From assembly GCF_044324785.1 (NCBI RefSeq), contig NZ_CP172127.1: a stretch of 64,000 nt of DNA. One strand, given 5' to 3'. The DNA is from Escherichia coli (GTDB lineage Bacteria > Pseudomonadota > Gammaproteobacteria > Enterobacterales > Enterobacteriaceae). The position numbers were made by a program, and so were the translations under genes. The notes beneath the pieces were generated by a model. The model had not been told where the DNA came from. It was given only the letters and a program-made list of their open reading frames with translations, and searched no databases. Of the stretch, positions 24,177 to 24,455 are shown piece after piece (position 1 is the stretch's first letter; each line of letters begins with the position of its first letter).

Positions 24177-24455
24177 ATGAAACGTAACCTGATAAAGGTG
24201 GTAAAAATGAAGCCTTATTTTGCTGCTTTGATGTTATCAGTCTCTGTTCTTCCTGCTTATGCTGGTCCGCTCGGTACTGCAGATAAAGCCGACCTACCGC
24301 AAAGCAATGTCTCCAGCCCAATGATGGCCCAGTCGCTCAGGCAACCAGACCTGCAACCGATATCGACGGACAGGAAGACAGAATGTTTTCGCCTTTACAC
24401 ACCAGATCGCAAACCGGGGGTGAACTGCGTTCCTGATGGCTCAACAGGCCATTAA
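24177..24455 (+). CDS. yjbT: Small secreted protein of unknown function
   Basis: 92-aa ORF with a signal peptide (MKPYFAALMLSVSVLPAYAGP); the internal ATG at 24207 has the better RBS (AAGGTGG). The symbol is tentative: position and length match my memory of K-12 yjbT. Confidence 0.5.
   Translation: MKRNLIKVVKMKPYFAALMLSVSVLPAYAGPLGTADKADLPQSNVSSPMMAQSLRQPDLQPISTDRKTECFRLYTPDRKPGVNCVPDGSTGH

Follow-up and report, generated by a model that had tools for sequence, protein, structure and literature searches.

The small gene yjbT of Escherichia coli: a probable start correction, conserved upstream elements and a predicted exported product with a C-terminal cysteine loop

The open reading frame at positions 24177 to 24455 on the + strand of the window, by which we mean the whole 64-kb stretch of Escherichia coli DNA analysed, is almost certainly yjbT (b4620) of K-12 and a genuine coding gene. 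Its annotated start is probably some 30 bases too early, the product being 82 rather than 92 amino acids long. Gene and family (PF17089) are already catalogued, as uncharacterised, and the finding therefore matters little alone; what is new is modest, namely the probable correction of the start, the definition of a cysteine-loop module, a narrow and patchy distribution, and upstream elements that are portable. YjbT is part of the uncharacterised 'y-ome' of E. coli, so that assigning it a function would close a small gap in what is known of the best-studied of bacteria.

Identity and translation start of yjbT

Read from ATG 24177, the frame encodes 92 amino acids; the product, given as MKRNLIKVVKMKPYF...STGH in the open reading frame listing of the window, reads MKRNLIKVVKMKPYFAALMLSVSVLPAYAGPLG...NCVPDGSTGH from end to end. 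The TAA stop codon lies at 24453..24455 (+ strand), and an in-frame internal ATG at 24207 yields 82 residues. The initial annotation gave these coordinates and lengths exactly, as well as the placement of the frame opposite to both of its neighbours, which are psiE (23552..23962, - strand, a 136-residue frame matching PsiE, PF06146) and yjbH (24502..26598, - strand, 698 residues, matching YjbH, PF06082). Against the profile of PF17089 (YjbT) the frame scores 217.7 bits, with a cut-off of 27 and an E-value of 1.4e-65, and residues 1-92 fall on profile positions 1-92 of 92; as membership is defined by a score above the curated gathering threshold together with end-to-end coverage, the frame is a member of the family. 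This is the sole Pfam match of YjbT at E <= 1, and profile searches of NCBIfam, and of PHROGs and PADLOC at E <= 1, return no family. K-12 and other RefSeq genomes carry a 279-nt coding sequence at the identical site, in the order psiE, yjbT, yjbH, annotated as 'periplasmic protein' (WP_001295279.1), and the protein encoded in the window is identical to the K-12 one. Over 82 codons the two genes differ by three synonymous and no non-synonymous changes, and the 30 nt that precede them are identical. In the K-12 RNA-seq tables b4620 is on the reverse strand and adjoins b4030, which is psiE (PMC3734233), so that b4620 is the gene under study. Since it shares the K-12 locus, with psiE and yjbH on either side and both on the other strand, and is near-identical in sequence, the frame is an ortholog of yjbT: protein, position and strand are those of K-12 YjbT, and the full-length profile match is to the family that Pfam calls 'YjbT, uncharacterised protein family'. 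The identification with yjbT, put forward tentatively from the sequence, is thus borne out, and the short periplasmic protein that had been set beside it as another possibility coincides with yjbT and is no rival reading. A difference is seen in the psiE-yjbT spacer, where K-12 carries a REP-type insert of ~55 bp that the window does not have. An extra K-12 'hypothetical protein' of 47 amino acids is encoded within that insert; we considered it as yjbS and rejected it, as b4621, which we take to be yjbS, maps between b4054 and b4055 at ~4.267 Mb.

Which of the two ATGs starts translation? Predicted pairing with the anti-Shine-Dalgarno sequence amounts to -8.5 kcal/mol for ATG 24207, in the top 2.2% of the 980 + strand ATGs of the window, versus -3.3 kcal/mol for ATG 24177, at the 31st percentile of window ATGs. 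The Shine-Dalgarno sequence of the former, AAGGTGG, is found at 24195..24201 (+ strand), 5 nt before the ATG, and the arrangement (T)GATAAGGTGGTAAAA-ATG is nearly invariant in most genera. In Kluyvera, Pseudocitrobacter, Buttiauxella and Shimwellia, all orthologs open with M-[KTR]-x-Y-[FW], aligned with the second ATG. Given that the orthologs start there and that the Shine-Dalgarno sequence at this site is strong, an 82-residue product is the most likely one, and the initial preference for the internal start is upheld by the pairing, by the ortholog starts and by the stop codons met upstream outside Escherichia. The ten codons that the 92-residue form has in addition (MKRNLIKVVK, 24177..24206, + strand) are probably untranslated leader, and this segment is conserved as a nucleotide motif irrespective of frame. 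The same data suggest that the true length of the PF17089 family is ~75-85 amino acids from the second ATG and not 92.

We consider it unlikely that the 92-residue form is a real, or an additional, product in Escherichia, in which an unusually long basic n-region, MKRNLIKVVKMK, would precede the hydrophobic core. All seven Escherichia sequences examined retain ATG 24177 and its frame, the +5 charge of such an n-region is compatible with Sec export, PGAP annotates 279 nt, and the Pfam model spans residues 1-92; the Pfam length is not independent evidence, however, because the seed of PF17089 is presumably dominated by Escherichia. Against this form, none of the non-Escherichia orthologs has an ATG at that position, and in-frame stops occur 6-8 codons upstream in three of them (Pseudocitrobacter, Buttiauxella sp. 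and Shimwellia). Moreover, ATG 24177 is in frame only through a difference of a single nucleotide, an extra A, Escherichia having TGATAAAGG where the other genera have TGATAAGG. Besides its weak pairing, this ATG stands 1 nt past a 6-bp hairpin, and the 5' ends recorded by RNA-seq in K-12 lie 7-22 nt ahead of it, one of them even between the two ATGs, which would leave it a leader of at most 22 nt.

Expression and conserved flanking elements

yjbT is a genuine single-gene transcription unit. RNA-seq of K-12 describes b4620 as a single-gene transcript in all 7 conditions (LB, heat shock, phosphate starvation) (PMC3734233). Transferred to the window, the 5' ends of this transcript fall at ~24155-24170 in four conditions and at 24201 in LB; they come from transcript assembly and not from mapping of transcription start sites, and are approximate. 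Entries for yjbT are absent from the supplementary tables, possibly incomplete, of studies on Ribo-seq under acid stress, the absolute proteome, N-terminomics and start sites by Cappable-seq, and a full-text literature search for yjbT returned incidental mentions only.

Four non-coding blocks upstream of the gene are conserved, at nearly fixed spacing, among genera whose synonymous sites are saturated, and they stay with yjbT where its neighbours are unrelated ones, in Buttiauxella and on contig P0008, as does a hairpin past the stop codon. The first of them, which we call block A (AAATCACCCATTCAGGTGAT, 24107..24126, + strand), is a perfect 6+6 inverted repeat. Across genera it takes the form AAATCACCC-N5-6-GGTGATT, and in an upstream alignment of 9 orthologs the half AAATCACCC is kept in all genera but Shimwellia. 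As RNA, block A folds with -7.8 kcal/mol (z -4.3), and the 64-kb window holds no further exact copy of it. It may be an activator site, an operator site or a terminator-like hairpin. The second block contains a candidate -10 hexamer, AAAAAT, at 24149..24154 (+ strand), where most orthologs in the alignment show nAnAAT columns (GATAAT, GAAAAT, AACAAT and TACGAT among the forms found); from the columns, and from its place near the RNA-seq 5' ends, we infer that it acts as a -10 element. The third is a palindrome, TGTTCC-tct-GGAACA, at 24161..24175 (+ strand), whose 6-bp stem appears as a hairpin of the 5' leader in the minimum free energy fold; the TGTTCC/GGAACA stem is kept in other genera with loops of 3-5 nt, and no second exact copy occurs in the window. 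The fourth block, CTGATAA(A)GGTGGTAAAA-ATG, leads into the gene. A scan for strict sigma-70 consensus sequences found no promoter upstream of yjbT. The combination GGAAC-N14-CTGAT resembles a sigma-E promoter, a reading that we rejected as its spacer appears to be ~5 nt too short for the consensus. Nor do the upstream blocks convincingly fit the consensus sequences of CRP, FNR, PhoB, RcsB, OmpR, IHF and MarA. These conserved elements could lead to the regulator of yjbT.

Downstream, between the convergent genes yjbT and yjbH, lies a perfect 12-bp hairpin (AAAGGTGCCAGT / ACTGGCACCTTT, 10-nt loop) at 24460..24493, which can form on both strands, with -19.6 kcal/mol (z -5.0) on the + strand and -19.4 kcal/mol (z -4.1) on the - strand. 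The transcripts of both genes probably end here; a simple terminator scan missed the hairpin because it has no T-run. A hairpin of different sequence stands just past the stop codon in 8 of the 9 orthologs examined, the exception being Shimwellia.

Protein anatomy and proposed action

On balance we favour, though with considerable reserve, a reading in which YjbT is a small periplasmic protein, exported by Sec and processed by signal peptidase I, whose conserved disulfide loop binds a partner. Translation from ATG 24207 would give an 82-residue precursor, to be exported via Sec, and signal peptidase I would cut it after Ala19 (AYA/G), leaving a periplasmic polypeptide of 63 residues. The first ~38 residues of the mature form, for which no structure is predicted with confidence, would be a freely evolving spacer. 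The working part would be the last 20-25 residues with the motif T-x-C-x13-C-[VIF]-P-D, in which the two invariant cysteines, oxidised in the periplasm, would close a 15-residue loop by a disulfide bond, and this loop may be the binding epitope for an envelope or extracellular partner. Export, cleavage, disulfide bond and the loop as functional unit are predictions drawn from the sequence and from alignments of 10-14 diverse family members.

The putative signal peptide, MKPYFAALMLSVSVLPAYA, covers residues 1-19 (19 codons, 24207..24263, + strand) and ends at the predicted signal peptidase I cut, AYA/G. It is built of MK, then PYFAALMLSVSVLP, then AYA before the G, a pattern kept in all 14 sequences. 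In the family alignment the n-region has one or two basic residues and the h-region is ~10 residues long; in E. coli YjbT the hydrophobic core, residues 6-15, has a mean Kyte-Doolittle value of 2.37. Every ortholog has small residues at -3 and -1 (AYA, AFA, VFA, AHA, ASA, AFS, CYS and CYA). A basic n-region, a hydrophobic h-region of ~10 or more residues and small neutral residues at -3 and -1, the sequence features of a Sec and signal peptidase I substrate, are thus all present, and the N-terminal hydrophobic stretch followed by AYA/G fits the signal peptide claimed at the outset. A lipobox, [LVI][ASTVI][GAS]C, is absent: the first cysteine of E. coli YjbT is residue 60, and the A-P-C-Y of the Buttiauxella and Shimwellia proteins, with Pro at -1, is no lipobox.

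Residues 20-57 (24264..24377, + strand) form a variable linker rich in Pro, Ser, Thr, Asp and Gln, without a confident fold. Compared with Kluyvera-type orthologs its pN is ~0.50 and its dN/dS, where measurable, ~0.8, and its length is constant to within ~5 residues across orthologs. The conserved C-terminal module, TECFRLYTPDRKPGVNCVPDGSTGH, takes up residues 58-82 (24378..24452, + strand) and carries the motif named above, of which a fuller pattern is T-x-C-[FY]-x8-[RH]-x-P-G-[VIL]-N-C-[VIF]-P-D. Its T, C, P, G, N, C, P and D are invariant in 12 diverse sequences, and the C-x13-C spacing is constant in all 14. The C-terminal region had initially been described as containing a single cysteine; there are two instead, C60 (TGT, 24384-24386) and C74 (TGC, 24426-24428) in the numbering of the 82-residue form. 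With an even number of conserved cysteines, two, in its predicted mature part, YjbT has the sequence feature expected of DsbA substrates. In the AlphaFold models mean pLDDT is 55.6 (precursor) and 56.7 (mature form); the sole secondary structure is the helix of the signal peptide, at residues 3-12 in the AF2 model, and the linker, at pLDDT 46-63, has none. As the AF2 alignment held 10-12 sequences, low pLDDT may mean either disorder or too little information. A sequence-profile search of the PDB with YjbT found nothing at E <= 10. The loop T-x-C-x13-C-[VIF]-P-D is a precise and testable candidate for the functional part.

The same anatomy can be read in another way, as that of a pre-pro-peptide with a layout like that of the enterotoxin STa, in which the middle would be removed after export and the disulfide-closed C-terminal ~25-mer released, perhaps to the exterior of the cell, as a signal or an antagonist. 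A conserved signal peptide, a near-neutral middle and an invariant cysteine-bearing C-terminus are the pattern to be expected if only the C-terminal peptide matters, and basic residues (RK, RR, HR) often stand just ahead of T-x-C. In addition, in a study combining text mining and machine learning, the YjbT domain came first among the genomic features linked to 'strain inhibits E. coli'. Yet the residues before T-x-C (RK, RR, HV, HR, RV, LN and YN) make up no conserved cleavage site, and no exporter, protease or immunity gene adjoins yjbT in any context examined. YjbT has two cysteines only and shows no similarity to toxins or bacteriocins in Pfam, PHROGs, PADLOC or the PDB. The machine-learning association, for its part, is most simply taken as a likely lineage marker, because the family is almost Escherichia-specific. 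We therefore judge this reading improbable, and slightly more so in its elaborate form, where a disulfide-cyclised peptide of ~25 residues, freed from its pro-region, would act beyond the cytoplasm of the cell that makes it, signalling to or antagonising Escherichia and close relatives, under the control of AAATCACCC...GGTGATT and TGTTCC...GGAACA.

Distribution, selection and likeness to known systems

The YjbT family is very small; exhaustive searches by profile among 1.84 and 5.8 billion proteins yielded named members from Escherichia/Shigella, Kluyvera georgiana, Pseudocitrobacter, Buttiauxella (two forms), Shimwellia and a few metagenomic sequences. The order psiE, yjbT, yjbH is found in Escherichia and Pseudocitrobacter, yjbT adjoins yjbH on contig P0015, and in Kluyvera georgiana a gene for a hexapeptide-repeat transferase is inserted into the otherwise identical order, so that yjbT is one gene away from yjbH. 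In the two Buttiauxella forms, in Shimwellia and on contig P0008 the neighbours of yjbT are unrelated. Within E. coli, yjbT is present as a single copy, at >=95% nucleotide identity over 279 nt, in 5414 of 5426 complete genomes. Strains can dispense with the gene: EC42405 has lost it by a clean deletion, GPEC1031 carries a 5'-truncated pseudogene, and some E. coli and Shigella alleles look frameshifted.

Could YjbT be an accessory periplasmic factor of exopolysaccharide export by YjbEFGH, for instance a ligand or regulator of the outer-membrane protein YjbH? The position beside yjbH in Escherichia, Pseudocitrobacter and P0015, and one gene off in Kluyvera georgiana, speaks for such a role. However, yjbT is not a member of the yjbEFGH operon, as it lies on the opposite strand, convergent with yjbH, with the strong hairpin between the two; being convergent and having a hairpin of its own, it is not co-transcribed with yjbH. 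The unrelated neighbours elsewhere, the restriction of the family to a handful of genera in the exhaustive searches, and EC42405, which retains yjbFGH after the loss of yjbT, all count against this role as well, as does the range of yjbEFGH, which is far more widespread than yjbT and occurs, for example, in Salmonella and Dickeya. Loss or truncation of yjbT in some strains, together with unrelated neighbours elsewhere, indicates that the gene is dispensable and only loosely coupled to the polysaccharide operon, and we hold a dedicated role in YjbEFGH export to be doubtful at best. The literature treats yjbEFGH in Salmonella and Dickeya.

The coding status of yjbT, which carries the preferred reading of a small exported protein, does not depend on the length of the frame. 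Chance open reading frames of 80-130 amino acids are many within 4 kb of yjbT, and its length alone is insignificant because nearby chance frames are equally long; it is raised above chance by the Pfam match and by codon-level conservation. Within Escherichia, in a comparison set of E. albertii, E. whittamii, two further Escherichia species and a divergent E. coli, the five comparisons with any non-synonymous change give dN/dS values of 0.10-0.21, and the variable sites are distributed 4/2/11 over codon positions 1/2/3. Farther out, YjbT and the Kluyvera-type orthologs share ~50% identity overall, while V/I exchanges are the only differences, if any, in the last 25 residues. Across these 25 codons the Logan contig P0008 differs by 18 synonymous changes and no non-synonymous one, and Kluyvera georgiana by 14 synonymous changes and one non-synonymous. 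Taking ~25% of sites as synonymous, 18 of 18 synonymous changes versus P0008 would arise by chance with a probability of ~1e-11. When E. coli, Kluyvera and P0008 are taken together, the variable sites are 1/0/19 by codon position, 19 of 20 being third positions.

That the frame is an annotation over-call, as the initial annotation had allowed, with its conservation due to a non-coding RNA, an antisense gene or constraint on the DNA, has next to no credibility left: in its favour are the failure to find a proteomic or ribosome-profiling record in the supplementary tables searched, the antisense frames of 67 and 53 amino acids that overlap yjbT, and the featureless predicted structure, but these antisense frames match no family, neither strand of 23900-24560 matches an Rfam 15 covariance model at E-values up to 1, the frame, the signal-peptide features and the cysteine spacing are kept in five genera, and, in the last 25 codons, third positions vary while the peptide is constant bar one V/I change, a pattern that excludes this explanation since constraint on RNA or DNA would keep the nucleotides and selection on an antisense frame would not yield such periodicity. 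Codon-level conservation had been proposed beforehand as a check on this very point. Notwithstanding the absent proteomic record, the comparative evidence firmly establishes yjbT as a core gene of E. coli that codes for a protein.

Three known systems offer themselves for comparison. The STa precursor, of 72 amino acids, has a Sec signal, a pro region and a C-terminal cysteine-rich mature peptide with six cysteines. YjbT resembles it in size (72 vs 82 amino acids) and in the succession of signal peptide, poorly conserved middle and conserved C-terminus, and the C-terminal peptide of STa is disulfide-bonded in the periplasm, whereas for its YjbT counterpart this is predicted from sequence. The two have no sequence similarity, and YjbT has two cysteines, hence one possible disulfide, against six; without homology and with two cysteines, it does not belong to the STa-type enterotoxins. 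STa is moreover carried on a plasmid or transposon, while yjbT is a chromosomal core gene whose product has no conserved processing site. The D-region of type IV pilins is a C-terminal disulfide-bonded loop and a surface binding epitope. A C-terminal Cys-x12-14-Cys loop with Pro/Gly turns is common to the D-region and YjbT. Unlike the pilins, YjbT has an ordinary Sec/signal peptidase I signal peptide and its gene is not near pilus genes, and the N-terminal hydrophobic helix and globular domain of pilins are absent from it. YncJ, YbgS and YahO are standalone, exported proteins of fewer than 100 amino acids, of unknown function and narrow enterobacterial range. YjbT is, like them, a small protein of the 'y-genes' with a signal peptide, in its case a predicted one, standalone and narrowly distributed in enterobacteria; it has no detectable homology to any of the three and is set apart from them by its invariant cysteine loop and its near-neutral linker.

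Coding strand and upstream inverted repeats of yjbT

Two open reading frames overlap yjbT on the opposite strand, one of 67 aa that begins with TTG (24118-24321, minus strand) and one of 53 aa (24337-24498, minus strand). The distribution of substitutions by codon position favours the yjbT frame over these antisense frames, and neither of the two has a match among Pfam families.

Immediately 5' of yjbT, at 24107-24175, lie two conserved inverted repeats, ATCACC-N6-GGTGAT and TGTTCC-N3-GGAACA, whose spacing is nearly constant between genera and which both travel along with yjbT when the gene resides at other loci. 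A search for a regulator identified none. Read on the minus strand, ATCACC-N6-GGTGAT is followed by a run of seven T residues, an arrangement whose sequence resembles that of a terminator. In K-12, tabulated RNA-seq data include a 61-nt read cluster antisense to yjbT that lies over the 24107-24175 region.

The psiE-yjbT spacer and natural loss of yjbT

In K-12, E. albertii and E. whittamii the psiE-yjbT spacer carries a REP-type palindromic insert (GCCGGATAAG...GGCGCATCCGGCA), which in K-12 amounts to a net gain of 55 bp (window 24048-24105 against 1650-1760 of the K-12 locus, L001); the window and strain N3 are without it. The 47-aa "hypothetical protein" that PGAP calls within the K-12 insert is probably spurious.

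Natural loss-of-function alleles of yjbT are found in two E. coli strains: in EC42405 (L019, 3063-3184) the gene is cleanly deleted, leaving psiE and yjbH 120 bp apart, and in GPEC1031 (L018, 2501-2653) it is truncated at its 5' end and annotated as a pseudogene. By their sequences, four database proteins, P0006 and P0012-P0014, one of them from Shigella flexneri, look like frameshifted alleles of yjbT.

Variation in the surrounding genes

Among E. coli genomes, one of 5423 matches to the psiE-yjbT-yjbH junction falls on a plasmid-labelled record, and at least one genome has matches at two places.

Comparison of xylE (window 22033-23508) with L003, L018 and L019 reveals that the gene is missing from several E. 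coli strains (FDAARGOS_1290, GPEC1031 and EC42405), where malG directly adjoins psiE, and therefore that xylE is subject to presence/absence polymorphism at this locus. malG likewise adjoins psiE directly in Kluyvera and Pseudocitrobacter. In Kluyvera georgiana a gene encoding a 151-aa hexapeptide-repeat transferase (L012, 5377-5832) separates yjbT from yjbH, unlike in Escherichia, where the two genes have no such transferase gene between them.
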